64,000 bases of DNA from Marsupella aquatica (taxonomy: Eukaryota; Plantae; Marchantiophyta), in contig OZ316896.1 of NCBI GenBank assembly GCA_973895155.1, positions 12,876,549 to 12,940,548 on the forward strand, written 5' to 3'. The stretch's first letter is position 1; each line of letters starts with the position of its first letter. Below, in pieces: positions 5,106 to 63,869 of this stretch. The notes below the pieces were generated by a model. The model had not been told where the DNA came from, ran no database searches, and saw only the letters and a list, made by a program, of their open reading frames with translations. Made by a program: the position numbers and the translations under genes.

Positions 5106-6981
5106 AGCCCCAGGGCATTCGATTGATGATGGGTTTTGTGGCTCTAGGCATGAGCAATGGGATAGCCCGATCACAACGGGCTAAGACACGCCGCCTATGG
5201 ATGCCTAGCTAGAAAATTATGGGCATGACAAGTTAGTTGCGTGCCCACGCGTGTGGGATGGGGTACAGGTAGGGGGCCAGAATTTTGGGAACAAAGTAGG
5301 TATGGGGGTGTCAGGTCTCCACAAAGCATATATGAGGGGAGTGGTGTGTCCCTGGGGGCCAAGGGCGAGCCCAGGTCGTGGCCGGGAGACGCCAAACGGA
5401 AATGACAATAACTTCATGATGGGAAGTTTGTTTGACGACTTCTTGGGTGCGTTGCCTCCTGAGCTCAGATGGGTCTGGGGTGCCATGCATTCACGAGGAT
5501 TGCAGGGGCTATCTTGCCTGCTTGCCAAATCTTACCGAAACATGTGAAGTGCTCTAGTTCAGGGAATTCCAACCCCAAATAGTCTTAGCCCAAAAACCCA
5601 TCGCATTTGGTGTTATGATCTATTCAAACTCTCTTAATTCTTAAGATAACCAGCATTAATTAAGGACAAACAATAATTCCAGGATAAGACCAATTACAAT
5701 GTAGACTGTATTTGTATTTTAGTTCACAATCTTTAATGTTAAATTTCTAGAGAGTACCCTGACCTGGTTGTAATGTGTAGTGTGATCTTTGATATCGATT
5801 CTTTGAGTGTTGTTCCCATTGGGGACTACCTTGTCCTAGTTGTAATTTGGTTAGTGATCTATGATATTGAACATTTTTTTTAACTTGCTTCCAGAATATG
5901 GTAGGGGGCATTTTAATCTTTCCCAGCCAAAAGTTCTATGGATCTACTTCTTCTAGTATTTTATTTACACCTAGTGGAAGATATGCTGGCTGCCTATTTT
6001 AACAACCTGTTTCAATAGAAAACAAGTTTCCTGGTGCAGTTAGTCTCCCATTAAGCATTTAATTCGGCATGTCCAAGACTTGTCACTGAGCTGATGACTT
6101 TAGTCTATGTTGGTCCTAGTTTTTAGAACATTGAAAAAAATTTATATCAATTTTGTTGCTATTTTTTAATTTAATTTTTGCTTTCTTCCTCCTGCTTTTA
6201 TTTGTTAATTGCTTTTTGTTAAGAAAGAGCCACAAGTTTAAGGAAGTTTATGAATGGGTTCTTTTTTGAAGTTTTTTAGGAAGAATTGCACCAAAACAGT
6301 CATCATGTTTGCATATAGGTTGAGTATCTTTGCAACGTACCTTCCTATGCGGTTTACTCCGGAGCTCTATCAGGAGTTTCACTTCACCGCTCAGTAGGGT
6401 ATAAGTCTTCTCCGCTTTGTTGTAGGTTCCTTCTTTGTGTCATTGTTCCTTTGCTGTTATGGGGGACCCATCGGCTTGTTAGACCCTCTGGTCTTTTTGG
6501 ACCCTTTTTTGCTCCTCTCTCTCTCCTCTTCATTGGATTGTTTTGCTGGTGGGATCCTGTCTCCTGGTTTGGCATTCTTGCCCTTTGGCACGGTCATAGA
6601 TAGTGTCACAAATGTCATTTCTTCTTATTTCCCCGAACGGCTCACATACTGCACAACCCAATTTTTTTTAATATCAATTTTTTAGGATTAATTCTTGTTT
6701 GTGCCAACCTAATTGCAACAACAGCTCATTCATGCCATGCTACGATGTGGATGTAACATTTCTTGACACATAAACTTCTCCTCTCATTTCCTGCTTGAAG
6801 GCCACTAAATAGTAATGAAGATTGAGCAATTGGGGAAAATGAAATCACTGCTACCACTCATCTTGTAGCCTTATAGTGGTGAACCAAAGATGGGATAGTA
6901 GATCTTCTTGAAGACTGGTGGTTTGACTTTTGACCTACAAAGAGAAAAGAGGCGAATCCAAACCGACACCACATAGCTCCT
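5106..6981 (+). repeat. 1.87-kb segment, inverted duplicate of 31094-32959
   Basis: Reverse-complement match along the whole length. Mirrored ORFs: 5251-5547(+) vs 32521-32736(-), and 6384-6575(-) vs 31368-31688(+). Confidence 0.95.
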
Positions 6982-7666
6982 TGTGATGCCGCCGGTAAGG
7001 CGGGTAATGAGTGATTCGGCATAACAACGCTTATCACGCGCGTTAGGGGTATCTTAGGCCGTAATTATTAGCGTAACGACAGTATTTAGGTAGCCATTAT
7101 GAGTAGGAAATCATTAGTCAATAAGGGGCATCCGTGTTCGGCCCGGCGGCGGGTCGCCATTTGCACGCCCGGGTTGCGAGCGTGTAATGGGCCCCTTCCT
7201 CGGGTCCTATAACAAACTCAGGGAGGCGGCCACTGGACACACGTTGACCCAGACTAGCGGATTGTCCTGTACACTGCAAGCGTGAAAGGCTCAGCCTATA
7301 AGCGAAGAGGAGGCGTCGGGCGATCAACGAGCTCTCAGGGGTATAAAATGGGGGCCTATCCTTGGCAGGGCACCAGTTCTTCAGTTCACACGCCAGCTTT
7401 GACCCCAATTCTCTCAATCAGCCTTAGTCGCCGTCTATCTCCTCTGAATGTCACACACGATCCTTTCCAGTTTGGCCATACAATTCTGGACACAGTTCCT
7501 GTCTATCGGAGGGCACTTGGCCGACTCATTGAAACACGCCAACCCGCGCCGATACAAGATCGAACGCAAATACGAGAGAGCCATCCGCCTAGCAGGCCGC
7601 CACCACTATCTCCTTAACTTTGAGTACCCATCCTAGAGCGAGCTTTACCGACCCGAAGAGGTATCT
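6982..7666. mobile_element. LTR copy B (TGTGATGCC...GAAGAGGTATCT), no matching target-site duplication
   Basis: TG start; colinear with 1-637; left flank CTCCT differs from right flank ATATC. Confidence 0.7.
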
Positions 7667-17490: not shown

Positions 17491-18827
17491 ACATAGAACT
17501 GATCTACATTAAGCCTGTCAGCAGTAAATCTCGACTAAAATTCTGACAATGATGAGAAAGTAATATCAAAGTAATAATATTGAGATAGATAATTGGTAGA
17601 GACTTCATCCACAAAGCAAGCACCATCTGAGAACCACACCCTTGCTATTATTTTGATGAGATCTTTGTATGCGTTACTGACTGACGCACTTGTTCGTCAC
17701 ATATGCCACACTGACCTTTTTGTGCAAATGCTCTTATAAAAAGGCTTCATGATAAACTAGGGAACAAGTAGAATCTTGACTTCGATTTGCGTAGTGCTTT
17801 TCCATTTCCCGTTCATTTGACTTCGACTTTCGTAGTGCTTTCATAGAATACTGTTCAGAAAGAGCCTGAACTACTGTACTCATGGAACGGAGAATAAAAC
17901 GTCAACCTAAGCTGCCACAACGATTATTACAGGTGGCCCCACCATTATTCCCTTCAAGTGTCATGACACTGCATCCCGAAAATAGGTTGTGAATTGGTCA
18001 CTCTCTAGTGCGGCGCAGCCAGCTAGCAACCATCCACTCTGGCTCTTCCTTAAGGATAGTTAGAAAACAAAATCAATGAGTCCTTTTTGCCAAAACCGGC
18101 CAAAGTAAATAACTGACTCTGACATAATGTGTCAGTCATGCAACTTGGACCATAAGTAGTGCAATCATCTACACAATCACACCAGCGAGAAGACGGGACC
18201 GCTGGCAACGAGACATCGAGAAATTCCCCTCCCTGCTAATGATAAGGAGTGATCCGGTGCAGTCGATTCACCAATGAGAAGGAAATGCTCAATCGCAGAC
18301 CAAGAAGAAAACCAGCTTCCGAATTCACGAAGCTGCGAAGAAATCGTCGCCAACTTAAAGCCGCCATCGCCGGGGACGATACGCCTTTCACCTCTTCCGG
18401 TGCGAACAAGTGACGCCTCTCACACTCGCATGGACCGCAACAGATAATGATTGCGTGCTTGCTCCTCACAGTCGTCCCTCCAGTGCTCCAGCCAGCTCCT
18501 CCAGGAAGTATTGTTCGACTCTGAACGCGGTCGCCATCAAAGTAGTCGCCCTCGTCTTCGCACTAAAATTCATTCATCCACAACCTTCCTGGCCGATCGA
18601 CCAACGAGCTCCCTCAAGTTCTCAACAAGACGTCTTCACAGGAGAGCGACGCAACATCGCATTAATCGTTAATGACCGAGTCCAGTAGTAGAACTCCCGT
18701 CCCGCGGCACCCCTCTGCCGAGTGCACGAGACCTCTCCCATCCCAACCCGACCTGCTTCACGCATCCTCGTCGAGCCCGCCAATTTTTTTTCCTTACTAC
18801 GACATAGGAGTATACGTATAGGGTAAG

Positions 18828-18964
18828 GATGGTCCAGCCGTCCATTACAGGGGCTTAGCGGAACCACCGGGCTCTGACACAGGCGTGACCGGCGAAAGCC
18901 AGGAGCCCCTAGGGAGGAAACTAGGAGGCCCGGTACACCCCAGTAATGGACGGCCAGGATCGTC
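18828..18964 (+). other. Multi-branched stem-loop (candidate structured RNA or cis element)
   Basis: Nested pairings: GATGGTCC/GGATCGTC, GCCGTCCATTAC/GTAATGGACGGC, GGGG/CCCC, ACCGGGCT/GGCCCGGT, GGC-GAAA-GCC, CCTAG/CTAGG. Confidence 0.55.
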
Positions 18965-19722
18965 ATTGGCACACCTAAATGCGATCTTGGTTGTAGGGCT
19001 ACCGGTCAGCGGAGGTGTGGAGATCTGGGACCATTCATTTGAATCTGCGACGCATCCCGACCGTCCATGCAATCATAGCCAAGTATCCTGCAAATAGGGC
19101 GGGTTGTGTCTGCTCATTGTCGTTGTTGTTTACGAGCGACTAAGCGTGAGTGGATTGCAGCAAAGCGCTGCGCGATTGCAACAAGCGGATTGCAGCAAGG
19201 CGCTGTGCGATCAAGCAATTGGGAGGCCCTACGAAGTCAAGCAATGGCGAGGCGCTGCTCTGAAGCTCATGGCGATGGTGGCGGGGTGGAGCATGGTGCG
19301 TTTGAGCAATTTCAAAACAGAATTTGATGATGCTATGATCACACGGGGTTTCTCCTTTTGAAATTTGTGTTGTGTTGTGCAAATCATGGAGAGCGAGGTA
19401 GAATCGCATGCAGCGTGGGATTGGAGTCTCGACAAGTGGCCCGACAAGTGGTCAGGTTGTTTCTTTCTGAGTTTCAGTATGTATGCATTGCTGTGGATGT
19501 TCAATCGTTGTTTAAACCACACCTGCCCCTACAAAGGGCTACATGTAACCCGTAGCTCTCATTCTAAGGAGGAGAAGTTCAGAAATGTGCTTTGAGCTCC
19601 ACAAAAGGTGCTGACTACAAAACCTTTTTTGGCAAGTACTCCACAAAACGTGCTAGTGTTCCACCTTTTATGGTGAGTAGGGAGACATGGAATGAGGCTT
19701 TTATAGTGGAAGGTGTGGTTTA

Positions 19723-21160
19723 ATGGTTGTAGCGGTCGAGCAGCTTGTGTCATTTGGAGTGATCTGTGAGCTAGCACAGGAGCTCGCTCAAGAGCATTGG
19801 TTTTGTAATAGCATTAGGATGGAGGCAGAGTTTAGTGACGGAGTTGTCCCTGACAGTTATTCAGATGTCGAGATGGATATGTTTCTTTTGGTTGATTTGA
19901 GTTGTGACAAGGAGGCATGCGATCTTTCTGAGTTCAATGCGGCTAGTGCATTTGATGAGGCATCTATCGAAGCTATTTCTATGGATGTGCTATCCACTTT
20001 ATCCGAGCCTGATGTCATTGGGGTTGAGTGTTGTGTGCAGGTTACTGAACATAGCAGTGTAGTTCAAGTTGATGGAAACTGTGTGTTGGGCTCGAGGAAG
20101 GATCATGTGGAAGTAAGCCTTTCGGGCTTGAGACTTCTACCTGATCTTGTGCTAGAGGAAGCAGGCCGAGGGTTGGAGAAGTTGTCGTCTGCTCACAATG
20201 ATCAGAGGGCTGTGAGGAGGGCTGACGGTTTGTGGAAGGGGATTGGGTGGGACTTAAGTGTTGCATTTGGGGACCTGCCGCTTGCGGAGGTGGACAAGTT
20301 ACTGAGCACTATTTTGCCCGTGAAGAAAGACAGTAATGTTTACCCATCATCTTCCCTCATGAATGAAATGAATGGCTTTAATCAAGTGTTGAGGCGTGGC
20401 AGTGACGTGAGGTCGCTTAAGGGCTCTACTTACATTTTTCCATGAGATTTCAACATCAACTCACATCCGGCCTTCACAAAAACTGGAATGGTGTTGAAAG
20501 CTGCCATCCATAAGTCTACGAAGGAAGGGGCTAACAAGAAACAAAAGAAGGTGAGAGTTGTGACTTTGCATTCTCTTTGAAGACTGTGTGCGCTTGCAGA
20601 TCTGCTTGACTGTTCTAACTTTCAGTTGATCTCATGCAGGTGAAGATACTAACTGAGGAGCATGAAAAAGCGATAATGACCGACATTGCCCACCAAGTGA
20701 CTATTAGTCATGGATGCCAGAAGCAGCTGGCATTTTACTGCTTGGTTTGGCTTGGCATTCGTGGAGGTGGCGAGCTCTATGATCTCCTCAGAGGCAACTT
20801 ATCTGTCTGTATTGATAAGGCGAGAAGAAGTCATGTGCAGTAAGTGTTCTTGGTTCAGCTGTATCTGTCTAATGAGATTTAGCTTTGTTGTATTTGTTTA
20901 TTGGTTGTCAGTGATACTAATAGATTGTAGTATTTGCAGGTTTGAGGAGCGCCAGAGTAAGAATAACTCTTACACTCTGGATTGGTACAATGAAGAGCAG
21001 TTTAGAAAGCAGTATCATAGTTATGAAGTTGATTTTGTTCTAACTGACAACCAGTACAAGCGCCACTTATGTCCGGAAGGAGAGTACATCAGCAAAACCG
21101 GACCTCTTCATGCAGGCGATCCAGAGTCCTGCTGGGAATGTGTGGTATAATGAGGTCCAC
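19723..21160 (+). pseudogene. Crypton/DUF3504-like tyrosine recombinase pseudogene; exons 19723-20550, 20640-20839, 20940-~21160; 3' truncated
   Basis: Spliced translation: DLPLAEVDKLLS..VKKDSNVYPSSSL...FNINSHPAFTKTGMVLKAAIHKSTKEG..|VKILTEEHEKAI...LAFYCLVWLGIRGGGELYDL...|FEERQSKNN...LFMQAI..GNVWY. GT-AG introns preserve the frame. One TGA at 20443 and one frameshift near 21100. Confidence 0.72.
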
Positions 21161-24100
21161 AAAGTCTCCTTTATATCCCATTAAGGGATAGCCCTGGTCC
21201 TTAACCATATACGAGTTACTCACGATAGCATTAGATCTTCTCAAATCTGACAAAATATGAGAATCAGCTATCTCACATGTATTATTTTGATAAAGTTTTT
21301 ATTTCTTACTCGTCCCATGCCCCTGTGTTGTCTCATGCATTATTTTGTAAACTTTTTATTTTTCACTTGTCCCATGCCCCTGTGGTTGTCTCAAAGCAAA
21401 TCAGCTATCTCACATGTATATATTATTTTGGTACAACTTTTATTTTGTATCGTCCTTGGCCCCTGCGTTTTCTCAGAACAAGGCATCTTCAAGGAGGGAA
21501 TTGAATCAAATGTCAAGGAGAAACAAAGATCTCAAACCTAGGCAAAGGTGTCAAACAAGATGTCAAAGCAAAGCCAAAGTGTGAAGAAAAGCAAAGAAAT
21601 CAAGATGAGACAAGAAGGTTGTATACATTTTGTAAAGAGACAACTTGTGAGGCCGGACCGAATTAGTGTTTGATTACCGGGTGCCTACTCTTTGAACGTA
21701 TTCCCATTTTGCACCCCCTCTAGACAATTGGCCCTGAATAGAAGTTTTCTATGGCATTGTCTAGTTAGATTCATTCCCAAATTTTTCTGGACATAAAGTT
21801 TAGGCTATTTTTTCTGCCAACAAAGGTACCCCATCAAGCTTCCCCTAAAATTTGGGGTTGACAGTGTGACCTCTTGGTTTCATGGGCCAAAGGTTTCCCA
21901 CTGAGCCTGTGCCTGGTTGATACTGCTTGATTGATACAAGACTGAGCTGGGTGGTATAATTGAAATTTTTGACATGTTATAACCCCAGCGGCTGGTTTTA
22001 AACTAGATGGCCGGTTTAAAAGACTTCTACATGAATCACAATGGTTAAAAACAACTAGGACGGGAGTCTACCCATGAGGCATTTTTTGTTCTTTAGCAGC
22101 TTGCTATATACAGATGGGCTCTCTAACAAGATATGTGTCTCAAGTAATTCTTTCCATTACAAAAGTAGACATTTTCAAGTCTCGAAAGGTGCTGGTCTAT
22201 CCATAGTAGTTACTTCATCAAATGTTGCAGTCCATCCTAGCATCAACTTATTTTATAATGCCAAAAGATCTTAGCCAATAAAGATGTGAGAGACCATTTT
22301 GGAATTGAACGACCCCATCCTACTTATCCACGGGCCCCCTAAATTGCTGATATAGAGCGAGGATCCTATATGCCCAAACATCAATAGGTAGGATTGGTAG
22401 ATCCCCTAACTTGCTCATGTAAAGTGAGGATTTGCATTGCTTTTTAAGTACTAGTCCTAATACGTGTGCATATGTCCTTCCTGTGCAAAGGTTGAGGTCA
22501 AACATTGTCTAAATATTAAAAAATATGTCACCAGAGAAATTATGGTCTACAGCCAAATGTGCATGCGTTGCACAGGTCATGTTGAGGCAAACCGAAGATC
22601 TCGAGCTGAGGCAAACATGACCAGGTGAGGCAAGGATGTCAAGGATATCAAGGCAAGGAAAAACTTTCAGGCAAGTTTAGATGTCCAGGTGATGCAAAGA
22701 TGTGGAGTATGGGACAAGTTCATAAAGCAAGGCAAAGATGTCATGGAGAGGCAAGGCCGGGAGGCAAGGAAAGAAAGCACCCCACTGCAGAGTCCAAGCA
22801 CAACAGCATGAAAGGAGGGAATATTTTTTGTTTGAATTTTCAATTTTTAAATAAAGAAATGTTTTCTGCATTTTTATTTATACTCAAAATATTTTTCAAA
22901 TTTTCCAAACCTAATATCCGTTTATTAAATTTAGATTTATTTATTTATTTTAATTTAATATTTTCATCTTGGGCAGGTTTGGGCAGCTCGAGCAGACCAA
23001 GGCAATTGAGATTTAAGGGGGTATGTATGGATTTGACTCAGCAAGAAAAACAATTTCTTGATAAATGGCTAGAACTGGTTCCCACTTTTTTGTGAATTTG
23101 TAAAAGGACGAAGGACATTGTGGTGAGATTATAGTAGTACTAGCTCAATACCAGTGAATTGCACAAAGTGCTAAAAATGATATACCCTTGATTCCTGTTG
23201 CGCAAAAATGTTCTAGTATAAGGTGTCATGGCACAAATTAGTTTGAGAACCCCTTGTTTATGTAAGTTTGTTTTATTTAACTATTTGAAGTCATGAAGAG
23301 TTGCAAATTGGAATAGATGGATGAGAAGATAAAAATTAAATGAAGGATTCTAAATGAAATGAATTTTAAAGGTAATTAGGAAAATTTCAATGAAGAAAAA
23401 TAGGAGTACACCATGGTAATAATGAGGGTAATTCTCCATGCAAAAACTTTCCCTTAGCACCGTTATGTCTATACAACATATGTAAAATTCCATATAGTTC
23501 ATGCAAAATGTTACTTTCTCCATTGTAGTTAAAAGGCCTTAGAGTCACTTGGTATTCCTCTACCCCTAGTAGTTATGATGTTTCTTCCATTTCCTTGTTA
23601 CTACTCTATCCATAGGGTTTCTTAAGTTCTCTTAGTATATGTTAGAGAAGTTTATTGGGTTTCTTTTGTTACCCTTGGTAAATGTTAGAGTAGTTGAAGA
23701 GTTCCTTTGTATTTGTAATTATTTCAAAACTGTGCATTAAATAGAAAGTTGAAATAGATTATTTACAAAAAAATATTAGTATGTCAATCACAACTCATCC
23801 AAATGTTATTTTCTTTCACCCCTACCTTACCATTTTCTTTGTTTACTTGAAAGGTTATTTGTCAATTTTCTATTGTTTTTACAGTTATAGAGTCTAATTA
23901 TTTTTCTTTGCCTTGCCTCAAACACGAATAGTCAAATTTGGTCTTGCTTGCAGACTAAAGGTTCTTGTTGAGATTCCTCAAACATGAATAGTCTAATTTT
24001 GTTTTTCTTGTATAACTAAAGGTTCTTATTGAGATTCTCCATTCTGTGTGTCTTTTTTGGGCTGTTTGTAGTTTCCCCCTTCCCATGGGGTTTTCTAGAT

Positions 24101-24699
24101 TAAAATTATATAAAAGATAAACCATTTTAATGAACTAAAGGTTCTTGTTTGTGACAAATCATGATGATGTAGTTAGATGTGCATCCAAGAAATTTGAAAG
24201 GAACTTCACATGGGGGTGAGTAAAGACTGGTGACAACAACCACAAAGTATCACTAGGTAAGAATGACTTTTGTCTTTGTTTTTTCAATTTTTATTAATTT
24301 CTTTTAAAGGTTAAGGCCTAGGTTCCATGAAGTAGAGGTGTGTACATTTGAGGAGCACGGTTTTTTTCCATACATTTTTGTTTGTTTTTGGATCCAATCC
24401 AAAATATTCATGTGGCAAGGGGAGTCCCTGGAAAAATTAGCGGGGTAGGGAGTGTGGGCTCCCCTCACATTCCTTGATTTCTACCCCTGAATACCGGGCC
24501 AATCGGTTCCTGAAGCCAAAACCGGCTGCATCGTATCGGTGCGCAGAATAAAAGAAGCCCGTCGTGACGCTATCGTGATAGTTCAATTATTCATGATGAA
24601 ATTACTATCACTACGTATATTATTAAATATATAAATTAGGTTTATATTTTACTACGGGATAACTAAATAGTTAGACTATTACTTATGTGTATGCAAAGT

Positions 24700-25030
24700 A
24701 AACAACTATGCAAGCCACAAGATGCATGCAGCACAAATTATTTAGATGCATATGCAAATTTTTTTATTTACATATATTAATTATTTTATGTGCATACAAG
24801 ATGAACAAATATGCAAGCCACAAGGTGTATACATAAATTATTTTAGATGCATACAAATTGAACAAATGTGCAAGCCACAAGGTACATGCACAAATTGTTT
24901 TATTTGCATGTCTTAGTTGTTTTATGCCCATGCAAGGTGAGAAAATATGCAACCCATAAGGTGCATGCATGCATAAATTGTTTTATGTGCATGAATTTAG
25001 TTATTTTACTTGCATGCATCAATTGTTTTG
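24700..25030. repeat. Degenerate ~59-bp AT-rich tandem repeat (ATGCAAGCCACAAGG..CAT)
   Basis: Four to five recurring units. Confidence 0.7.
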
Positions 25031-26413
25031 ATTGCAATAGTACTAACACACATTCTTACATTGGATGTGTGTCACTTGGCTTTCATCCAAACATTTGGGC
25101 GTAATCCATGTCATCTTGGATTCAATATAAATAAAGTGGTGAGGGGCACTCTCTCCTCATACCCATATTTTGATAATTTTCGCGTCTCTCATCTTTCCTT
25201 TCTATTCTTTGCCTTGTGTACATAGTAGTGGGGCATTCTTTGGCCCGGATAGCAAAGAAATGAGTGATAGACTTATAGATGGGACCTTAGAGAACAAGTT
25301 CTCTGTGGAAACTTATGGGTGGGGCATCCTTTGGCCCAGATAACAAAGGAACAAGACAGCCATTATGAATCCAGGAGGGAAAAATATCCCTAATCTTCCC
25401 CTTTGTAACCTATTTTTTGTTAGAGTCCATCTTTTAGACAAGCCATCCATGAGGCAACATTTAACCTATCACTTTGGAGCTCAATTTGCAGCTGTTGTTA
25501 TGATTTCTAATGAGCCAATACTATACCTAGTAGTGTCTTACCAAGGGGAGTGGGATTGCATTATCTTTATCCTCTATTGAAGTCATGGATCTAAATAGGA
25601 GTCCAGATGACATTCTTATTTTATTTTTTCTTGGAGATATTATGATCATATGTCGTAGAAAAATTAATTTTCGAGAGGTGTTGATCCCCAAATATGGTGA
25701 AATAAGATTTAATAGTATATGAATTTCACCTGAACCTCTCTTAATACCCACTACCCTTCTTACAAGAGTTATCATTTTGGTTTTAGTGTAGAACTTATGG
25801 GCATGCAAGATTGATTCATAAGAGCCAACATGCTCTTACTAGAAAACATGGTCACAACGCTACAAAGCCCTCCCCGATAGTTTCTTGTTCCTTTTGAGAT
25901 CACTTTCGCGAATGAGGAATTTTGAGCGTAGATGTGAATGTTGTTGATTTTGGAAGTTGATTTCACGAGAATGACCTACAAAGTTAATCAAAGCCATCTT
26001 GCAAGACTGACATTGCAATTCTTTTTTCTGAAGGTATGTAGAAATTTCCAATTCTTGAATCTATCGTCTCGTCTGTCAAGTCCATTGAAATGGAGAAGAA
26101 AATTTGTTCGAATTTCATTCTAGATAGAGGCTTGTCAATTTTGTAGCTTTGCTTCAATACTCATCCACAAATTACCTCTCGCAATGCAATGTTAATAAGG
26201 TTGCACTAGTGACCCTTTGCTATAGAATTTAACAATGCAAAGAACACCGCGAACGTGACCATTATTGCCACACAATAAATTTGAAGCCATTCACAAATGA
26301 AGTGGTGCTTGCAATTTTTCAAATGTTTTAGGGTGGCGTATCTTCAACTAGCTAAGCTTCAGCAAGGACGAGGTCATTGAATTATGCCAGAAGCATAGAA
26401 TCTGTCTTCAAGA

Positions 26414-31093: not shown

Positions 31094-32959
31094 AGGAGCT
31101 ATGTGGTGTCGGTTTGGATTCGCCTCTTTTCTCTTTGTAGGTCAAAAGTCAAACCACCAGTCTTCAAGAAGATCTACTATCCCATCTTTGGTTCACCACT
31201 ATAAGGCTACAAGATGAGTGGTAGCAGTGATTTCATTTTCCCCAATTGCTCAATCTTCATTACTACTTAGTGGCCTTCAAGCAGGAAATGAGAGGAGAAG
31301 TTTATGTGTCAAGAAATGTTACATCCACATCGTAGCATGGCATGAATGAGCTGTTGTTGCAATTAGGTTGGCACAATCAAGAATTAATCCAAAAAAATTG
31401 ATAATAAAAAAAATGGGTTGTGCAGTATGTGAGCCGTTCGGGGAAATAAGAAGAAATGACATTTGTGACACTATCTATGACCTTGCCAAAGGGCAAGAAT
31501 GCCAAACCAGGAGACAGGATCCACCAGCAAAACAATCCAATGAAGAGGAGAGAGAGAGGAGCAAAAAGGGTCCAAGAAGACCAGAGGGTCTAACAAGCCA
31601 ATGGGTCCCCCATGACAGCAAAGGAACAATGACACAAAGAAGGAACCTACAACAAAGCGGAGAAGACTTATACCCTACTAAGGGGTGAAGTGAAACTCCT
31701 GATAGAGCTCCGGAGTAAACCGCATACGAAGGGACGTTGCAAAGATACTCAACCTATATGCAAACATGATGATTGTTTTGGTGCAATTCTTCCTAAAAAA
31801 CTTCAAAAAAGAATGCATTCATAAACTTCCTTAAACTTGTGGCTCTTTCTTAACAAAAAGCACTTAACAAATAAAAGCAGGAGGAAGAAAGCAAAAATTA
31901 AATTAAAAAATAGCAACAAAATTGATATAAAAGTTTTTCAATGTTCTAAAAACTAGGACCAACATAGACTAAAGTCATCAGCTCAGTGACAAGTCTTGTA
32001 CATGTCAAAATGCTTAATGGGAGACTAACTGCACCAGGAAACTTGTTTTCTATTGAAACAGGTTGTTAAAATAGGCAGCCAGCATATCTTTCACTAGGTG
32101 TAAATAAAATACTAGAAGAAGTAGATTTATAGAACTTTTGGCTGGGAAAGATTAAAATGGCCCCTACCATATTCTGGAAGCAAGTTAAAAAAAATGTTCA
32201 ATATCATAGATCACTAACCAAATTACAACTAGGACAAGGTAGTCCCCAAGGAGAACAACACTCAAAGAATCGATATTAAAGATCACACTACACATTACAA
32301 CCAGGTCAGGGTACTGTCTAGAAATTTAATATTAAAGATTGTGAACTAAAATACAAATACAGTCTTCATTGTAATCGGTCTTATCCTGGAATTATTGTTT
32401 GTCCTTAATTAATGTTGGTTATCTTAAGAATTAAGAGAGTTTGAATAGATCATAACACCAAATGCGATGGGTTTTCGGGCTAAGACTATTTGGGGTTGGA
32501 ATTCCCTGAACTAGAGCACTTCACATGTTTTGATAGGATTTGGCAAGCAGGCAAGATAGCCCCTGCAATCCTCGTGAATGCATGGCACCCCAGACCCATC
32601 TGAGCTCAGGAGGCAATGCACCGAAGAAGTCGTCAAACAAACTTCCCATCAGGAAGTTATTGTCGTTTCCGTTTGGCGTCTCCCGGCCGCGACCTGGGCT
32701 CGCCCTTGGCCCCCAGGGACACACCACTCCCCTCATATATGCTTATGGAGACCTGACACCCCCACACCTACTTTTTTGCCAAAATTCTGGCCCCCTACCT
32801 GTACCCCATCCCACACGCGTGGGCACGCAACTAACTTGTCATGCCCATAATTTTCTAGCTAGGCATCCATACGCGGCGTGCCTAAGCCTGTTGTGATTGG
32901 GCTATCCCATTGCTCATGGCTAGAGCCACAACCCATCGTCAATCGAGTGCCCTAGGGCG
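31094..32959 (-). repeat. Inverted duplicate of 5106-6981
   Basis: AGGAGCTATGTGG at 31094 is the reverse complement of the sequence ending at 6981; the match continues to ~32959. Confidence 0.95.
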
Positions 32960-33872: not shown

Positions 33873-34579
33873 CCGACAAATAGATACTTGATTCACCCCT
33901 TTTGGGCTATGTCTACGGCCGCACCAAGAGCTTCACTATGAACACAAAATGTATATCACCATAGCTTCATGGTCCAAGCTCCATGGTCCAGGCTTTTTGA
34001 GCTCTCTCTCTCACACACACCAAGTTCTGGACTACCAAATTTTCTCTCCATGGGATACAAAAAGGTTTATCTTACCACAATAATACCCTATCCTGTCAAA
34101 AGTGGTGGGTGGTCTGTTTTACAAAATCACTTTTGGGGGGAACATTCCATGACAATTAATCCTAGTCTTTGATTAGTCTAAAACAATCTTTCTAACCCAA
34201 AGCAAACAAGACAAAGTATTCTGGTATGCACAAAGATTATGTAAGAGGGGCATGATGGCATAGGCCGTATGTGAGTGCCATGTGTTGCCATTGGAATGCA
34301 GGCACTTGGGACATCATTATACGGGGATAGGGACTTGGAGATAGGGACTAGGAGACATAAAGTTCAAAGTAGGGACTAGGGAGGGGAATTAATGATGCAC
34401 CCGTGGGTGAAGGGATGAATTGTATCATACCCTCCCATAAGTACAAGATAGGGGATGAGACAAAGTGGAGCAAAGGAAGGTGAATCAAAATAAAGAAAAT
34501 AATAATAAGGCAATAAGAGGGGAAAAGGAGGAGAAAAGGGACATCGTTTTGTTGCCTTGACATCTTTTAATCAACTCAA

Positions 34580-35060
34580 TGTCTTTTTCTCAGCTCAACA
34601 TCTTTTCTCTCCTCCATATCTTTTCTCTCCTCAACTTCTTTTGCACTCCTCAACATCATTTTCTCTCCTCAATATTTTTTCTCACCTCGACATTTTATCT
34701 TTTTTGCATCTCACCATCTATTTCTCACCTTGACATATTTTTATCTCATCTTGCCATCTTTTTCTCACCTTGACCTTTTCATCTCATCACAATATTTTTT
34801 CTCTCCTCGACAGCTTTTCTCACTTTGACTTCTTTTATCTGATCTTGACATCTTTTTCTCACCTGGATATCTATATCTCATCATGACATCTTTTTCTCTC
34901 CTCGACATTTTTTCCTCACCTTAACATATTTTTCTCACCTTGCCATCTCTTCTCTCCTGGCTTGACATTGTTTCTCACCTTGACTTCTCGCATCTTGACT
35001 TCTTTTCCTCACCTCAACATCTTTTTCACTTCAAGATCTTTTCTTCACCTTGACATCTTT
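34580..35060. repeat. Degenerate ~20-bp pyrimidine-rich minisatellite (TTTTCTCACCTTGACATC)
   Basis: More than 20 imperfect units. Confidence 0.8.
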
Positions 35061-38000
35061 TGTGCAACGCACAGGCATGGGGCTAGTGCTTTCATAAAGA
35101 GTCTATTTAAGTCATGTTAACTTTGGCTAACTTACTTTAGCTAATCTAGCCAAGCTTGAGTCAAAACCCTAACATTGTTGAGGCTCTGTTCCCCACCTGT
35201 AACTTTCCTTTCTCTAGTGATCTTGCGTGCATGGAACACACTCAATTCCCTAGCTATTAGAGGTGTGAGAGCAATGTCTTTTTTTATCTGTGCATTGAAA
35301 CCCTCTAACTATTGCTTGTCTGAAGTAGCTGTCTTTAAGATGAGACCTCCAAGTCAAAATCCCACACTGTGTTCTGCACAAACAGATATAGTATTACCTT
35401 AACCTTCCAAATTGTGTTTTGCACAAATGGGTTTAGTGTTACTCTAACTTTACTCCCGATGTTACTTAGTATGTTCTCAATAGTGTTCTGTCCATAATTC
35501 ACATTGGTAAGGTTGATTGAAGAGTAACCCTAAAAAAATCAAACTACACAAATACTCTAAACAAGACTAATTGGAGTGAGTATTGTAGGTCATGGTAGTC
35601 CCTAGGGGAACAATAGGTGGTCTCAAAGCTCAGAATTTGATGGGCCTTAAATCTGTAGTAAGGGGTTAAGGACACAAAAAAATAGACCAAATTCATACTC
35701 CATAACTTTATGCCATAAAGATTGGTAGTATGCCATTACCGTTAATTAGTTACTGTAGAGACTAGTGAAAAAGAGCCCATTTATAGAACCTTATGATTAA
35801 GTTACTACCATTAGTTTATGGCCCATCATCCGTAATGTTGAACGTTTAGACGCCCTAATACCCAGAACTGTACCAGGGACCACTAAGTTACTTAGTAATT
35901 GCCCCTTACCCTGTGCAGAATACGAGGCTTTAGTCAAGTGTGCACCCAGCTTGGATATTCAACTAGTCTTTGTCCACTGCACACCACCCATCTCCTACCT
36001 GTCCACGCCCTATTTGCGGATGCGGAATTGACCCGATATCTCTCAGTCCCAGGCACATTGCCATGGCCACATGGGCTAGCTCATCAGGTCCCACACAGGG
36101 TTTTCGCTTTGGGACTGCCCCTTTACCAGAAAATAATGATAAAATGAAAACCCACCACACAACGTGCTGTGGGGCAGGAGCGGATAACCTTACTTTTGAA
36201 AAAGAATAAAATTACAACCGCCATTTGGGACAAGCTAGATCTTTTCTGAATGCCCGGTGCATCTTTGCAGATACGCTTTCCTTCAGTTTTGAACGAATCA
36301 ATGCCACAATTCTCACTCCCAACAGGTAACCGGATAATATTCCTTCGGCTGAAATAGATAGAGAAACCTGTCCTTCCCAATCATGACCTGGTGTGATTTC
36401 TCTTCCCAAAATCCAATTCGCTTCCCCAATGATGAAACCGGTCACGGGTCACGGAAAGTCAAACCAAATGAGTGCGCTCAAACATAGATTCGTCAAATTT
36501 CATCCACTAAGGCAAGTTCTACTGTACTTATTAAATTGCATTGTCATTTCTATTTACACAAAGCCTGGTGTGTATTTGTGGGACAAAGAGGACCATTTGG
36601 GGCCACAAATGACATATGTGGCCCCGGTCAATCCGGCCTGGTGACAGGGTTGTGCCGGGAGGGTGTGGAGTCCGGGCGGGGGAGTCGGGGATCGGGCAGG
36701 CCGGGAGTCGGATGGGGACGGCCGGTTAGGGGGGCTGTGCCTTCTAGAGCCGAGCCAGGCCAGGACGAGACGGGTGGGTGTCTTAGGGGTTGCTTCAACC
36801 TTAAACATCCTTCCCCAATTGATAATAACAAGCTTCTAGTACTATGGTATCTAGATAAATGTACAACAAAAAATCTTTGAAACACTTAAAAGTGTGTGGA
36901 TACCCCCAAAAACAAAACAAAGTAGCTTGTCTTATAATGTTTTGGGTAAGAGTAGTTTTCATGTTCAAAAAATTATTAATCATTCATTTTAAGAGTAGAG
37001 GATTTTTTCTTTTGTACCACCTTAGAGCAAGTTGGGGCCACTTGGTACGTGTGCCGTCTTCTCATTGTTCATGTTGACAAGTGTTCGCCCCACTTTTATC
37101 CCCACATGTGTCATTTACATAACTACTTAGCTAGTAAAAGAGTATAAATCTCTATCAATAAAGTGGTGAGCCTGTCATGTTTATCTCATAATACTTTTGG
37201 TTAGTGACAGGGTAAGAGATAGGCTAGGGTTTAGGCATCTTAAGTGTATGAAATGTCAAGTTTAAGATAACTTAGTTAAAAACAAGGATACAAACGCAAT
37301 TTCAAAGTCCAACAATACAAAAGGTGCACCGTGTCTGAGGTGAATTGAAATAAAACTACATATCAAAAATCTCAATAACACAAAGTAACCAGTAGGCTCC
37401 CAAACAAGGTAACACCAGAAATTTGGGCAATTGTGTAGTCTTACAAGCAGGTACTCTTGTTTTTGTCTAGTCCTCTAAACCAGACTTGCTAGAGTGATGA
37501 TATTTTTAACATCAGTTTTGTCTCCCATAGATGCTTATTTCTGAAACGACTACTGTAGTTTGTCAATACTTTGTCAATGACAATCAAATGCTTTAAAATG
37601 AGGGATGTCATAATCTGGATGAAAATACGAGTAGAGAAGCTTATTAATGACCCAATACTAAACTAATTGTGCTTAAAGCACAACTACCCTTCAAAAGCTA
37701 CGGGTTACCCGTAGTTACCATTAAAAGGAAATTTTTTCTGAAATTGTGGAGTAAACTAGCATGCTAGAGGAGAAGAATGATTGAAATATGGAAAAATGGG
37801 GAGGTCTTGGACACTTCCCCTTATATAGGGGAAATTGTGATTTAAGGCGTGCGGGGGCCTCATATCGTAGTATCACCAGATTTGCTAGACAGTGTATTAG
37901 TGTAGCACCAATGTTTAAAATGATTTTATACCTCAGCTTTCTCTACGTGTATGCAACTTTTGTGCATAATTTGCCTAATTTGGTGCTTGTATTGAATGGA

Positions 38001-46400: not shown

Positions 46401-47689
46401 AAGGATGAGTCAAATATGACTGCTAGGGCTAGGGCAAGAAGTTTTTCCAACCCAATTATGGATGTTTATCAAATTCCAAATAGAACAAATTTTGACAAGC
46501 TTTGGGCAAATCCCCACATTGCACACAGGCTTCCAAAGTTGCACAGTCACCATTTCAAAATTGTTGGAGTACAATGCCATTAGAGACTTTGGTGTTGACA
46601 ATTCAACTGGAATTTTAGTTTCTCTTCCTTGACATGTGCGGCTATCCTAATGTGTTGCCACTTTGGTTTAAACTAAGGCAAGGCTCATTGCTATAGAAAA
46701 CTTCATCACAACAAGAGCATTTGACGGGGCATTTGAATACTTCACGCCTAGACTCATTGACTCCAAGTAACTCTAGATTAATGACCCTATGATCATTTGC
46801 TTTGATTGAGCCCAACAATAGCCAATATGAATGAATTGTTTACTTCTGATTTTGATTGAATTGGACTCTAAGCAAATAATGGGGATTGCACAAAGATAAA
46901 ATGCTATTGCCTGTTTTATTCCAAATGGGAGAAATGGACAAAGAAGAACAATTTACTCAAAATTGCAAGTAAGGTCCAGAGAGTTTTGGGTATAGAGAGA
47001 GTTAACGAGAATGGTTGGAAATAGTACACCAAAGGGAAACATGTAGATTTTCTTCCAAGTTCAACCTACAAGGAACATTCATCCCTTTGGAGTAAACTTC
47101 TTTGGCCTTGGGCCCAAGAGGAACTCTCACTCAAGCCCTCTAAAACTCAAAAAGTTTGTTTGGGGTCCAAACGCCCCCCCCCCCCTTAGCTTGGCCCTTC
47201 CTAGGACCCGACTGGCTCCCAATGTAAGTCTAAGTTCTTTGTGTGCACCACTAGCTTAGCGCATTGCCTTAATTTGTTAGTGCAATGCTTCATTGCCCAC
47301 AAGTTGCCCCATTCGTAGTCCCCATCGGATAGCCGTTCCGGAGGCTTGGACCTTAGAGGAGCTCGGTGTTGGAGTCAGCGACGCCGGAGCTAAGTGGTCT
47401 GGTAGTTGAGTTCCACAATTCACCTTCACTTTGATGTTGCTATTGCAAATAGACCTATCTAGCTCTTGACCGAACAACTCTTACATACTAGTCCTTAGGA
47501 GCCACTTGATTGACAATATTGGAGCAAGATACATGAGTTTAAGAACTTCATGCAACAAGAAAAATCAATACATTTGACGATATGGTTAACGGTGACCTTG
47601 GATGGAAGACTATTGAACATATCGAAGGTGCAACTAGACCGACCAGAAGCAATGTTCTAAGGATGCTAACACTGGTCATGGAGCTGATA

Positions 47690-49229: not shown

Positions 49230-50855
49230 AGGCCATGTAGGGTGGGTTGTGCATCATGTCTCATTATGGGAGGCGTGTAATGGGCCTCAACTCTGGTCAG
49301 GGCAAGAAGGAGCAAAGAAGGTGGACTGTTACTGAAGCCTTGTTGCAGGGTGATGAGCTAAAGATCCAGGGCTCCCCTACACTGCGGGGTCTGCTTAAGG
49401 GTTGGAACAATGCTTAAGGGCTCGAACAATGCCACCTTCTTTTCAGGTTTGGAGAAGGGAAGCTTCCATCCCATCTCTCTATTGAACAAGTTGTGCTATT
49501 GTACCTGTGCAACCACGGCACAACAAGGTATGGACTTGAGGAGGTTTATGGCTAATCGTAGAATTAAGACACTGCTTGATCTCAGGTCTCAGCTTGGCAG
49601 GTGGATCCTGGAGGATGAGATCTGTTGTCGGACCCGGAGCACTAGGAGGATTGGTAACGAAGCTTTCAGCATTTTCTATAGCAAGCTACAATGTTTTTCG
49701 GAAATTGCCATGGTTGAGCTGCAGGACTGTGCCGGTTGGCAATGGGACTTGGGGGGGGGGGGGAAGAATAGAGGCTGGTCATTCCCCACTAGGACTTGGA
49801 GCCAATGCAACGTAACCATGGAGCTTGATGTCACTAAGCTGAACCGACGTTGGGGACAGGTCAGCTCCTCACAGCATATATTGGCAGCAGCACTGGAAGA
49901 AAATCTGGGGAGGCTGGTCTTTCCCCAAGGTTAGATTTTTTCTGTGGAGACTGTTGAATCATGGATTCTTCACCAATGGTAGGGCTAGTCACTGGGGCAT
50001 TTCGGATGGCCTATGTGCTAAGTGTAAAACTCAATTCGAGCACACGGAGCACATGTTCTTCAGCTGTCCTACTGTTACTGTAAGATGGAGAGAGGTGCAA
50101 CGTCTTCTGCAACGAGCTAAAGATTGGAAGACCTCACAAGGATCTCTGTATGAAGCGGTCATTATTGCTGTGCAGATGCATAAAAGGAAACCTGGCCCGG
50201 TGGTTTTGATTATGGAGATGTGCTCCAGCATTTGGAAAGAACGGAATGACGCTACTTACTCTCAATTTTTGGGTCACCTCCCCGGTTGGGTCATCCTACG
50301 ACAAACTGAAACTCATCTCAGGGCTATGATTGACATCTGCAATTCTGAGAAGAAACGAAGACAATTGTGTAGTGCTATTGACCAACTCTAGGATGTACTT
50401 AAGCCATGAGAGACTGTCGATATGCCGCTTGCCCTTAACACTGATGAAACTGAAGATTGACTGCCAGCTCATCATTGCGAGGGATGCGGGGCGACAGCAG
50501 GGCACTTGGCTCTGCAACCTCGTGGACTTTAAGGAGGGTAGGAGACTGATTTTTAGGAACCTTACTAAGGTTGGCAGTAGGCAGAGGATTTCTTTGGACT
50601 ATTGAGGTAGTATTCAGCCACATCATAGGATCAACCCGAGAAGGGGACACCAGCAGAAGAACCAGACTTTCACCTAGAGACGTGATATGGCCCCGGGCAG
50701 GGGGGGTTTCAGGCCTCCATGGCCGGATTAGGGCTGGTTTGTGGGGTGTGTGTGGTGTTTTGGCTTGGGTGTTGGGCCCTTGGGTGGCTTTCGTCCCCTT
50801 GCGTGATATGGACGGGTCTCTGCGCCCCTTTCCCCCCCAAAAAGAAAGAAAGAAG
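49230..50855 (+). mobile_element. L1-type LINE 3' portion (ORF2 zf-RVT, 3' UTR, A-rich tail)
   Basis: FLWRLLNHGFFTNGRASHWGISDGLCAKCKTQFEHTEHMFFSC...IWKERN. A-rich end AAAAAGAAAGAAAGAAG at ~50840. Confidence 0.8.
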
Positions 50856-52069
50856 GGAGGCGTGTAATTGGTGGTGGCTTGGACACATGTGACTTGTACC
50901 ATCATCTTCCTAGATACGGAAAACTGCTAGATAAGCAAATACGTTATGAAAGAAGTAAGGAAGCTTACAAATGTAGTCTAAATGTACATATAGGGCATTC
51001 CCTTTTGTGTGAATTGTTTTTACTCAAATATAATCAAAACTAGCCAATATTAACCAATTGCCCCAAAACTATTTTAATAACTAGTACATTACCCCTTAAA
51101 TGCCGCAGACCCATCTTGCAACTACTCTAAGCCAAGGAAACTAAGGCATGGTAGTACCATCGTGGGAAGTTGGTTGGAAGTATACCCCGTAACCTAGAGA
51201 TGAGCACCTAGTTGGCCCAATCAAAACGCCCTAAAATACATCCGCAATAGACTTTGGGATCTGATTATGCTATGACTAAATGAAAGTTAGGACATACTTA
51301 GGCAAAACACCCGGACTTGGGAGCCACAACACACCTAGCTAGACCCATTTCTAGGGGCCAGAGCAGTAACAGGGAGTGTAAGCCGGGCCTGAGAACAACT
51401 GCACATAGACTCGTCTGTACCTGAGTAACAGTCATGCGCGTTGGATGCCTGGACCAAGTCCCAAGCATTAAAGGGAGCATAACTTCTGGCCCCAAAATCA
51501 GTTCAAAGCCATGTCTGAGACCTCATTGCAATCAGCATTCTGGCGCCTACGTGCATGTAAGAGGGCAGGTCAAACCAACATTGTTAAGCCCTTCAATCCA
51601 GGGCCAAATTATAGCAGACGGAGTTGGTCCAATGGCTATAGGTCTCCAAAAGCATACATGAGGGGGTACCCTCACTTGGCCATCAAAGAGTTTGCAATGA
51701 AGTTGTCAATCCCCTTTGAGTGGCTACTTGGATTAATAAGCTGGCTACTTGGATTAATAAGCTGGCTACTTGGAGGGACCTTAAGTTGGTAGTCTAAGTG
51801 GAAGCATCGGGAGGTTGGTTGGCCTTGAAAGCTTTTAAGTCATCCTAGGGGGCGGTGATCTTGAGGGGCCTTAGTTCTGCTATGCTCTAAGGAGGGGCCT
51901 ATTGTCAAATCAATATCTAAGCCGTTGGACCTGTATGTGAGTTGCCCAATTTGAAAGCTTGAGTCATAGGATATAAGGCAAAATGGATCCTTGAAAGGAT
52001 GATGGTGCGCAACACCAAAATTGCATAAGACTTAACTTTGCTCATATACAGTAGCAGAACTTGACTACC

Positions 52070-52880
52070 TTGACACTTAGCTCCGGCATTGCTGACTCCA
52101 ATGCCCAGCTCCTCTATGGTCCAAGCCCCCAAAATGGCCATCCAATGGGGACTAAGTATAGGGACACTAGTGGGCGATGAGACATTGCACTAGTGAGGGT
52201 AAGGCGCTAAGCTAGTGACGCACACTACGGACTTTGACTAGATTGGGGCTGGTCGGGTCATGGGCAAGGGCTGGGCTCAGGGTGGACCGTTTGGACCCCC
52301 AAATGAACTTTGAGTTATGAGGGCTTGAGTGAGAGTTCCTCTTGGGCCCAAGGCTAACGAAGCTTACTTCATGCGTAATGGAAGCTTGGCACTTTATGAG
52401 ATATGGCACAGATGACAGGGACCCCCAAGTGACAACCGGTTCTGAGGGCCTTGGCAACGGCACTGGTCCGGCCCAATCACAATGGGCTAAGGCACTCCGC
52501 TTACGGACGTCTAGCTAGAAAGTTATGGACATAGTAAATTAGTGCGTGCCCATGCAGGTGGGTTGGAGTCCAGGTGGGGGGCCAAAATATGGGGACCAAA
52601 GTAGGTCTCCATAAGCATACATGAGGGGAGTGGTGTCTCTCTTGGGGGCCAAGGGCAAGCCCAAGTTGTGAGTCGCGGCGGTTGTGACACCAACTAAAAG
52701 GAGACGCCAAACGAAAATGATGATATATTTTTAATGAGAGGTCTGTTGGGGGACTTCTTGGATGCGTTGGAAATTTCTTGAGAAAGACTATATCCTCCTG
52801 AGTTCATCTTGGTCTTGGGGTACCATGGATTCTTGGGATTTGCGGGGGCTATCTCGTGCGCTTGCCAAAATCTCCCAAAA
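52070..52880 (+). repeat. Dispersed repeat family copy (related to 5106-5560 and 32520-33295)
   Basis: Colinear with the reverse complement of 32520-33295. Confidence 0.75.
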
Positions 52881-58880: not shown

Positions 58881-59851
58881 ATTCGTTTGGTCCTACTGTC
58901 CTATTCGCGCCGCTCTATTATTACCACATGTCACGCTGCATTCTGCCTCCTGGCGGCCCATTTGTGAGCTGCCCGAGTGCCCCGCCCCGCTCTCCACTCC
59001 GCCCCAGACGAGTTGATCGTCGAGTCTCGTGACTTCTGTGGATCGGATCGGAACAATAACAAACTAGTAGACTGCAGGAGCGGCAGTGCTGCGGCAGAAG
59101 AAGTAGAGAGTGTAGTACTACGAGGAAGAGGCGGCTCTTTTCTCCCTTCTCGGGCAAAGCGTTGCGTAGATCGGGAATTTGTTGCATAGTGCGTACGAAC
59201 GAACGAAATAACTTTTTCCTTTTGCTCCCCCGGTGTAGGGAATTTGGAGCTGGCGTAGGAGTTGCAGATCGCCTTTTCTTTCCCCCCGTCGTCAGAAGTC
59301 CTCTCTGGGCCTTGTCGCGGATCTTCTTTAGAGTTGGTGGTGATGTCTATTTCCTAGTACAATGATGCCTTTCTGGATGGAGTTTGTGGTTCGGGAGTGA
59401 GCACTTCGGAGGGTGGAGGTTTGTGGTTCGGGACTGAGCTGTTGACATGCGAGGTCTCATATATTTGTTAAGATGCTAGTGCGGACAGGTTTGTCCGAGC
59501 CAGGAGAGTACTATCTTTGAGCAGTGGCGAGGTTGGTTGAGTACTATCTCTTGATCAGTGGCGAGGTTGATCTCTGGCATGTGGGTGGAGGAATGCGTAC
59601 TTGGAGGGCGTGAATTCGGCCCTAGTTGCTTAAGGAGCTGCGATTCGGATCTATCTGGTTGCACCGGCTTTGAAGTGAAGTGTAGTCCACAGCCGTTACT
59701 TGTTTGCGGGAGTTCCGCTTGTTCGACTCTACACCGGTCCGTCTTACTGGTCATCATGCGGACCACCGCCAGTCCTTAGGGCTTGATTTACTCTCGGGCT
59801 CAAAGGAACGCTCGAGTTTATCGTTTTTACTCTTCTTCGTAGACCACAGAA

Positions 59852-62800: not shown

Positions 62801-63637
62801 CGTCATGCAGCCAGTAAGATCCATCGTCTCCAAACGTCTTGATTTCACTTTTTCGCAAGTTTGTTTAAGTAAATGTCCTGTTACACAGCCTGTCTCTTGT
62901 AGTCCCCTTCGAAGGAGGATTTCGCGTGCTCTACTTAGTGTCCTAGCTGGTGACGAGAACTAATGATGTCCTCTGTTTGTTTATGTATGCGAGTCGAATT
63001 CTGAAACTATCGTCCGTCTTGGTTTGCAGTGACTACCATATGGGGCCTTATTGCACTACGTCTTGCAGATGAGGCAGTGTTGCCTTTTGACTATTCTACC
63101 TATGCGAAGGAACTGCAGGTAATGCCACATGTTAAGATCTTTAGTACTTCCAAGAATTTATGGCTAATGGAACCATAAGATCAAGTCGACTTGGATGTGT
63201 GGATTCCTTGAACGTTTATTATTATGGTAGACCCTCTGAAAGTATTCACTACGTGACCACGATGCGAAAGCGGATGTCCAGACCCTACCTCTGTTTTCGC
63301 AGGAGATGTCGGGTAGGAATGTCTGCTCACGGAAATGTTCCTTTGTTGATATGTGTAGAACTATGCCCATCAAATCCAGGTCGAGCTGGAGAAAGTTAAG
63401 GCCTTCTCAGACGTTGTGATTACTCCTCTCGTTACTGCGATAAATGATCTATCTAAAGCAGCTTCTCATATCCGGCAAGATTCGAAGGTGTTCCAGAGCT
63501 TCAGACCAGACGCAAGCGACATTTTTTACTTTCTCCTTCGGCGTAGAGCCATCAATGATAGACTGATGCTAGCAGAGCGTGCCTTTTTAGATTCTGATGG
63601 GTTACCAGGCCCAGGAAGGCAGTGGTACAAACATCTG
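59852..63637 (+). CDS. AMP1: Glutamate carboxypeptidase II family (M28B; AMP1/LAMP1-like). Exons 59852-60970, 61088-61237, 61411-61503, 61721-61873, 62054-62128, 62454-62541, 62730-62813, 63030-63118, 63359-63637; last exon(s) beyond window
   Basis: N-terminal TM helix and PA domain ([35 protein letters not shown]). Zn-ligand motifs GNHRDAW, DPNSGTA, WDAEEYG, YINVDC and YPVYHS are all present. TfR-like dimerisation region [19 protein letters not shown]. All introns GT-AG and frame-consistent. AMP1 vs LAMP1 orthology is unresolved. Confidence 0.95.
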
Positions 63638-63869
63638 GTGAGTGGCTCTTTATTTCAGACATCCCTGGTTCTGCATCATGTCAGTCGAACGGGTTTCTAC
63701 TGTGTTAGCTCCTTCGCTTCACTCATACCTTCACCCGACAATCGGTGGGATGCAGTGCAATGCAGTCTGCATGGTGCCTGGATTCCCTGTAGGAGTAGTC
63801 GATAGTGGTTCTGTAATGTCTTGATTCAAGTCTGACATTGAATCCTTGATGGATTGGTATTTTAGTCAA

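Follow-up and report, generated by a model that had tools for sequence, protein, structure and literature searches.

A probable Crypton-type tyrosine-recombinase transposon, dead and internally deleted, in a 64-kb stretch of the liverwort Marsupella aquatica

The segment between positions 18811 and 21213 of the window, by which we mean the whole stretch of 64,000 nucleotides analysed here, is, with a probability of about 0.8, what remains of a low-copy transposon, in a copy that is dead and has lost an internal part: its gene, split by introns, is a relative of the Cre-like tyrosine recombinases, and the element was likely mobilised through recombination at the TATACG found at both of its ends, likely by way of an excised DNA circle. 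The element lies on the + strand and is 2403 bp long, including a miniature element (MITE) that sits inside it; its limits are drawn from the direct repeat at both ends and from contig depth. The way of working would be that of a Crypton, of a plant lineage not described so far. The initial annotation had reported an intron-containing recombinase at 19723-21160: the gene is indeed there, but the element around it is larger, extending over approximately 18811-21213.

The gene consists of three exons on the + strand. Exon 1 (19723-20550) codes for an acidic N-terminal region followed by the core-binding domain, and aligns at 38% with residues 47-339 of P0021, a protein of the liverwort Calypogeia fissa. 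With exon 2 (20640-20839) the catalytic domain begins, its first arginine lying in the motif GIRGG (20760-20762); the exon is identified by its features in the Atlas and by a phmmer match to a second Calypogeia fissa protein, P0003, at 62% with an E-value of 5e-15. Exon 3 (20940-21169) holds the lysine motif SKN (20959-20961) and is broken by one frameshift, so that it aligns in two frames with residues 400-460 and 433-476 of P0021. The two GT-AG introns stand exactly where they had been placed, at 20551-20639 (89 nt, AAG/GTGAGA...TGCAG/GTG) and at 20840-20939 (100 nt, CA/GTAAGT...TGCAG/G): the boundaries can be read directly, and the alignment to relatives runs across them free of gaps. Once spliced, the product can be aligned with P0003 (62% over 143 amino acids, E = 3e-57) and with P0021 (45% over 410 amino acids, E = 6e-103), and neither alignment has a gap at a splice, which confirms both introns independently; the predicted splice model is better than chance. 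The motifs that had been listed in Crypton order are also present, namely EVDKLL..KKD..VYPSSSL, FNINSHPAFTKTGMVLKAAIHKSTKEG, LTEEHE, FYCLVWLGIRGGGELYDL, ERQSKN and, in the shifted frame, VWY.

The joined frame, 19723-21150, has 413 codons and one internal stop, the TGA at 20443-20445, which is codon 241 of the 413. This is the only internal stop, as had been proposed, and a single frameshift is found, whose best position is at about 21079-21094. As an account of the decay of the gene, one stop and one frameshift are correct but incomplete: there is also a deletion of two codons near 20307-20316. Homology ends at 21169, the equivalent of residue 476 of the 711 of P0021, ahead of the residues of boxes II and III. 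The gene had been described as cut off before the catalytic H-x-x-R/H/Y, and homology does stop there; the cause, however, is not the loss of an end but an internal deletion beside an intact right end, which removed the catalytic half between 21169 and 21174, 40 bp inside that end. Of the catalytic residues the window copy keeps the first arginine and the lysine only, and it cannot make an active enzyme.

At the other extremity of the gene, the true start is uncertain, because the proposed ATG (19723) coincides in part with the right TTAA of the MITE, and homology begins at about 19729. One frame was checked in the upstream segment 18813-19511, and it has no similarity to P0021. Our guess from the sequence is that there may be an extra upstream exon, whose intron would span the MITE and end at the acceptor AG at 19731-19732.

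A HMMER search with exon 2 yields 18 proteins at E <= 0.001, 13 of which form one family; the five other phmmer matches (P0004, P0012, P0014, P0017 and P0019) were dropped, being unrelated repeat-rich proteins according to Pfam. Two of the 13 are named, both from Calypogeia fissa (P0003 and P0005), and the others are JGI or Logan records. Searching with the core of P0003 adds P0021, also from Calypogeia, on a contig of 27 Mb. Calypogeia has at least three divergent copies of the family, and it is on the Calypogeia records that the occurrence of this family in land plants rests. Four of the relatives that were called as open reading frames, P0007, P0008, P0011 and P0013, end at the position of intron 2, and three of these, P0007, P0011 and P0013, read through the position of intron 1 as a single frame: thus intron 2 looks common to the family, and intron 1 variable.

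The comparison with PF12012 and the phage-integrase profiles of Pfam, which the initial annotation had proposed, gives no match, either for the exons of the window (E up to 1) or for P0021 and P0003, which at E up to 10 have no relevant match of any kind (no PF12012, PF00589, ALOG or GCR1_C); nor does Pfam match any of the 13 proteins of the recombinase family. The nearest relatives of this plant family are CryptonA and the DUF3504 elements; given the lack of a profile match to PF12012, it may or may not belong to CryptonA in the strict sense.

The first suggestion, a tyrosine recombinase close to the Crypton/DUF3504 group, is supported by an integrase profile, by language-model features and predicted structure in the Atlas, and by fold matches to Cre and QRICH1. 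The integrase family PHROG 1 matches P0021 with an E-value of 2.5e-5 and P0003 with 1.3e-4. By Atlas features, exon 2 is nearest to a DUF3504-bearing cluster, with a score of 0.97, the top cluster having 33% PF12012; the core of P0003 is nearest to DUF3504-bearing clusters as well (0.96), which occupy ranks 1 and 2. By Atlas structure, the model of residues 185-445 of P0003 is closest to a DUF3504 cluster, with a TM-score of 0.68 over 233 residues; the first two rows are DUF3504-bearing, and the best 10 rows listed are all DUF3504 or integrase clusters. In a wide fold search, the N-terminal helical domain of the P0021 core model, the counterpart of exon 1, matches Cre (Z 10.2, rmsd 3.2, 95 residues aligned), one chain of 9hjt, the SEPHS1:QRICH1 complex (Z 8.7, rmsd 3.6, 107 aligned) and, in third place, ALOG (Z 6.9), the same three being on top in both searches; the AlphaFold models have low confidence (pLDDT 42 and 58), and values of Z of 8-10 for a helical bundle are not decisive by themselves. 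The gene for QRICH1 arose by domestication of a DUF3504 gene (PMC3212892). Foldseek finds no match at E <= 0.001; Cre entries lead both of its lists, the best Cre-type match being at 0.021. Sequence searches of the PDB with P0003 and with alignment A2, and word-index searches with pieces of the exons, return no match.

Going by the expected motif spacing, we take the catalytic residues of P0021 to be R375, K408, R504, H527 and Y536. On the same assumption, both full-length Calypogeia proteins have an arginine (R501) where the box II histidine of H-x-x-R is expected, so that none of the relatives compared has the full canonical catalytic set. P0021 and P0003 also have long N- and C-terminal extensions, with about 175 amino acids after the tyrosine.

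The limits of the element were sought in four sets of DNA contigs, X1 to X4, from two organisms and two studies, matched to positions 17500-22500 at 80% identity. The depth of the X1 contigs is 24-27 in the flanks, 55.5 in the bin of the left end, 53-115 in the gene bins 20005-21173, and 210.5 in the bin 21174-21340, summed contig depth being no measure of copy number; the profile has the same shape in X2, X3 and X4, raised at the ends and the gene over single-copy flanks. In all four runs, many paralogous contigs with 80-99% identity cover the gene and the ends but spare the flanks. Among the matches listed in X2, two contigs diverge from the window directly behind 21213, and one joins it at 21174. 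In both X3 and X4, a paralogous contig starts at about 18815, and no match listed in any of the four sets has a loose end at the left limit. The departures of contigs at 21213, together with the recurrence of TATACG at 18811-18816, by the edge of the raised bin on the left, thus lead us to read the element as 18811-21213. Confidence is lower for the left limit than for the right one, because the former is based on the repeat and on the paralogous contig that begins at about 18815, within the matches listed.

Between these limits we find no frame for a reverse transcriptase (RT), for RNase H, for gag or for a DDE transposase, in a copy that is itself deleted; an undeleted copy of the family could carry genes beyond those that are visible here. 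The contig joints listed in X1-X4 include neither an empty site nor a circle junction. In X4, record 30 matches 21183-21559 exactly, at a depth of 30.5, and record 31, of 452 letters and depth 24.3, has the same end point (21559) but matches from 21234 only, with 125 letters unplaced; a contig of equal depth, 24.3, lies in the left flank at 18783. Record 31 and the contig at 18783 would possibly fit a second haplotype that lacks the element, the basis being their equal depth values. Also among the paralogous contigs is a diverged sister subfamily, a contig of 3363 letters in X1 (2089 in X2), which is about 82% identical to the left end and to parts of the gene within 18871-20540; the same contig differs over 18954-20152, with joints from 18953 to 20153 and from 20235 to 20321.

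There is no second copy of the element elsewhere in the 64-kb window, no related locus in the metagenome contigs, viral contigs and plasmids searched, and no Rfam match within 18000-22500. The rest of the window holds other repeats. Two inverted copies of a 1.87-kb repeat, at 5107-6981 and 31094-32958, are 96.5% identical and have no notable frame; older relatives of it lie near 47088-47413 and 52057-52880. At 1-636 and 7019-7665, 7 kb apart, stand two direct repeats of about 640 bp that share 83% identity, in the manner of LTRs or of a split-repeat element, and the open frames that they enclose, at 566-2548, have no Pfam match. A zf-RVT fragment of a LINE lies at 49362-50391 (match at 49843), and there are degenerate tandem arrays at 34540-35061 and 24669-25038 (a 19-bp unit repeated 27 times; units of 57 and 22 bp). 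A host gene of the glutamate carboxypeptidase II type, with a PA domain and an E-value of 2e-44 to solved GCPII, occupies 59843-63805; its label is presumably AMP1-like. This gene, the zf-RVT fragment, the GT-AG introns and the liverwort relatives of the recombinase are all in keeping with a land plant as host.

The MITE that interrupts the element is a high-copy, non-coding insertion at 19512-19723, with a body of 204 bp (19516-19719) between two TTAA and a terminal inverted repeat of 29 nt. Its inverted ends read ACCACACC, and TTAA stands on both sides in many unrelated flanks. The depth of its bins is 6208-43535, against 24-27 in the X1 flanks, and the sequences before 19512 and behind 19723 are varied. 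It is missing from paralogous contigs of X1, X2 and X4, which have a joint from 19501 to 19723. The MITE is a later insertion by another family, and, as to its superfamily, a duplication of TTAA and one of TA would both fit.

We now turn to the ends of the element. The left TATACG (18811-18816, + strand), which we infer to be the crossover core, and the right one (21208-21213) form a terminal direct repeat of 6 bp, within the Crypton-type range of 4-6 bp. The motif occurs 7 times on the + strand of the 64-kb window, or 1.1e-4 per position, and its right copy coincides with the contig break at 21213. This right copy closes the 40 bp that were kept after the deletion (21174-21213, + strand), an end recognised by the loose letters of X2 and by the depth of 210 in X1; a small second palindrome, TATCCC-ATTAA-GGGATA, stands at its inner edge, at the deletion point (21174-21190). 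When the two ends are joined, they read TCCTTAACCA-TATACGTATA-GGGTAAGGA, an imperfect palindrome around TATACGTATA. Its inverted arms are 15-16 bp long and overlap the direct repeat, the left one at 18815-18829 (+ strand) pairing with 21198-21213. They match in 14 of 16 columns, a score equalled by 13 of 20000 random 25-mers of the window; without the shared 6-mer, 487 of 20000 random 19-mers score as high. Terminal inverted repeats are not expected of Cryptons; these imperfect inverted ends are probably the arms of a recombinase site rather than the terminal inverted repeats of a DDE-type transposon. The site of a tyrosine recombinase (YR) is made of two inverted arms around a core of 6-8 bp, and the direct repeats of Cryptons measure 4-6 bp (PMC3212892); the ends of the element fit both the published repeats and the two-arm site.

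By what is published on Cryptons and on Cre (PMC3212892, PMC9977147), the element would move as follows. Its recombinase would bind the two inverted arms; a crossover within TATACG would free a circle with the junction TCCTTAACCA-TATACGTATA-GGGTAAGGA; and the circle would then insert at a genomic TATACG. Excision as a circle followed by reinsertion at a matching target has been proposed for Cryptons in general, and is supported for CryptonF-1_cRei (PMC9977147). The window copy could, in principle, still be mobilised by an intact sister, since both of its ends are present.

The left end has further structure, which opens the way to another account of movement. A subterminal hairpin (18837-18954, + strand) has arms of 25 nt at 18837-18861 and 18930-18954 that are 84% complementary, a score reached by none of 300 shuffles. 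A paralogous contig differs from the first arm at its 4 mismatches and at the base that follows; of these 5 differences, 4 would allow pairing with the second arm of the window copy, the paralog's own second arm not being in view. Directly behind the hairpin, on the + strand, lies a weak mirror of the joined-end junction (18955-19001, tested to 19005), similar to an internal complementary region (ICR), which carries AGGGCTA, the complement of TAGCCCT in the right end. In integron attC sites and in the internal complementary region of DIRS elements, the recombination substrate is built on one strand. By analogy, the joined ends of the circle would pair with the mirror to form such a substrate, and copy-out would be allowed instead of plain excision. 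We consider this account unlikely, even if several observations lean its way. With G-T pairs included, the duplex of the mirror with the joined ends favours the top strand (-16.7 against -10.6 kcal/mol), a result matched by 21 of 2000 shuffled right ends and by 34 of 5772 window 29-mers, for a region that was chosen after looking; the joined ends are predicted to fold into four arms closed by TAGCCCT/AGGGCTA, with z = -4.8; the differences of the paralog would repair 4 of 5 hairpin positions; and Cryptons of Chlamydomonas gained copies despite clean excision (PMC9977147). However, almost as strong a fold (z = -4.4) is predicted for the linear left end together with its flank, so that the signal comes mostly from the hairpins of the left end. 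Strict complementarity between the right end and the mirror, without G-T pairs, is not significant (152 of 1000); the forced rod is 12 kcal/mol worse than the best fold, with constraints that are possibly off register; the strand asymmetry of the whole fold is small (-52.1 against -48.8); and the windows were picked after looking, in one copy only. The mirror is thus a lead rather than a result.

The same mirror could be taken as the ICR, and the hairpin as inverted repeats, of a DIRS-type or ALOG-DIRS retroelement that has lost its RT, and an ALOG/integrase cluster does come fifth by Atlas features, as ALOG comes third by fold (Z 6.9). This origin is very improbable: two spliceosomal introns interrupt the gene, the ends enclose no RT, RNase H or gag, and the stretch ahead of the MITE measures only about 700 bp. 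DUF3504 clusters outrank ALOG in the Atlas, Pfam gives no ALOG match, and the recombinases of DIRS and Ngaro are reported to have no DUF3504 match (PMC3212892). The initial annotation had named an RT-linked recombinase as an outcome that would speak against a Crypton; neither RT nor RNase H is found within 18811-21213, and the sole RT-associated match of the window, the zf-RVT, is about 29 kb off. It had likewise named a conserved single-copy host gene. We give slightly less credit still to the related idea that the locus derives by decay from a domesticated gene of recombinase type kept by the host, comparable to ZMYM and QRICH1 in animals. QRICH1 is among the best fold matches, and the Calypogeia proteins, with their arginine in place of the box II histidine and their long N- and C-terminal extensions, would suit such a gene. 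Against it stand the many diverged paralogous contigs, the transposon-like ends, the stop, frameshift and deletion of the window copy, and the presence of at least three divergent copies in Calypogeia; both the lesions and the number of paralogous contigs depart from what a single-copy host gene would give.

If the element is a Crypton-type transposon, the family widens the known host range of Cryptons to land plants. The hosts described in the available literature are fungi, animals, stramenopiles and one green alga, with ends that are hard to define. We found no description of Cryptons or DUF3504 elements in land plants, in a search that leaves room for subscription journals and Repbase entries; an automatic repeat table for Dracaena has 24 matches labelled Crypton, for a total of 1.7 kb (PMC6294377). 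The value of the locus is limited by the fact that the copy is broken. Even dead, it offers TATACG as a concrete candidate for the crossover core, along with a junction that is palindromic and a subterminal structure, all of which are directly testable; as a tool, a recombinase of plant origin whose site is short and defined would also be of interest. A more ambitious picture, which we regard as doubtful, is that seedless land plants hold a Crypton lineage of their own outside the PF12012 profile; that its ends would be made for folding, the joined ends and the internal mirror forming a four-arm, single-strand substrate; that movement would be strand-specific in the manner of integrons, a mode undescribed for eukaryotic DNA transposons; and that this 2.4-kb deleted copy, which one haplotype may lack, would serve as a mobilisable mini-element from which the sites needed in cis can be defined.

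Among known systems, DIRS1 and its relatives, including the ALOG-bearing DIRS (PMC3537659), share with the element a tyrosine recombinase and, inside the left end, a complementarity to the joined ends that is weak here; they differ from it in that the element has introns and is devoid of RT, RNase H, gag and methylase. The Glomhoppers, CryptonA elements of Glomeromycota (PMC13465315), are similar in having a recombinase on the DUF3504 side, often intron-bearing or truncated, and in residing in repeat-rich regions. They are fungal, whereas no fungal protein is among the named matches of the window family, and, in that study, they showed no repeats and had ends that could not be defined.

The animal Cryptons of the CryptonA/DUF3504 type (PMC3212892) are the nearest by language-model features and by predicted structure, and resemble the element in their single recombinase gene and in the absence of GCR1_C. 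Their proteins match DUF3504 with E-values of 8e-12 or less, whereas the window family has no match to PF12012; and they are described in that article as having neither terminal repeats nor a C-terminal domain, whereas here there are a 6-bp repeat and imperfect inverted ends, and the liverwort relatives continue for about 175 amino acids after the tyrosine. CryptonF-1_cRei of Chlamydomonas (PMC9977147) and the CryptonF and CryptonS elements of fungi and oomycetes have other cores, CAYCG and TATGG as against TATACG, and CryptonF has a GCR1_C that was not found in the liverwort relatives. It is with them, however, that the element shares a short direct repeat that equals the target, and the model of site-specific recombination that goes with it.
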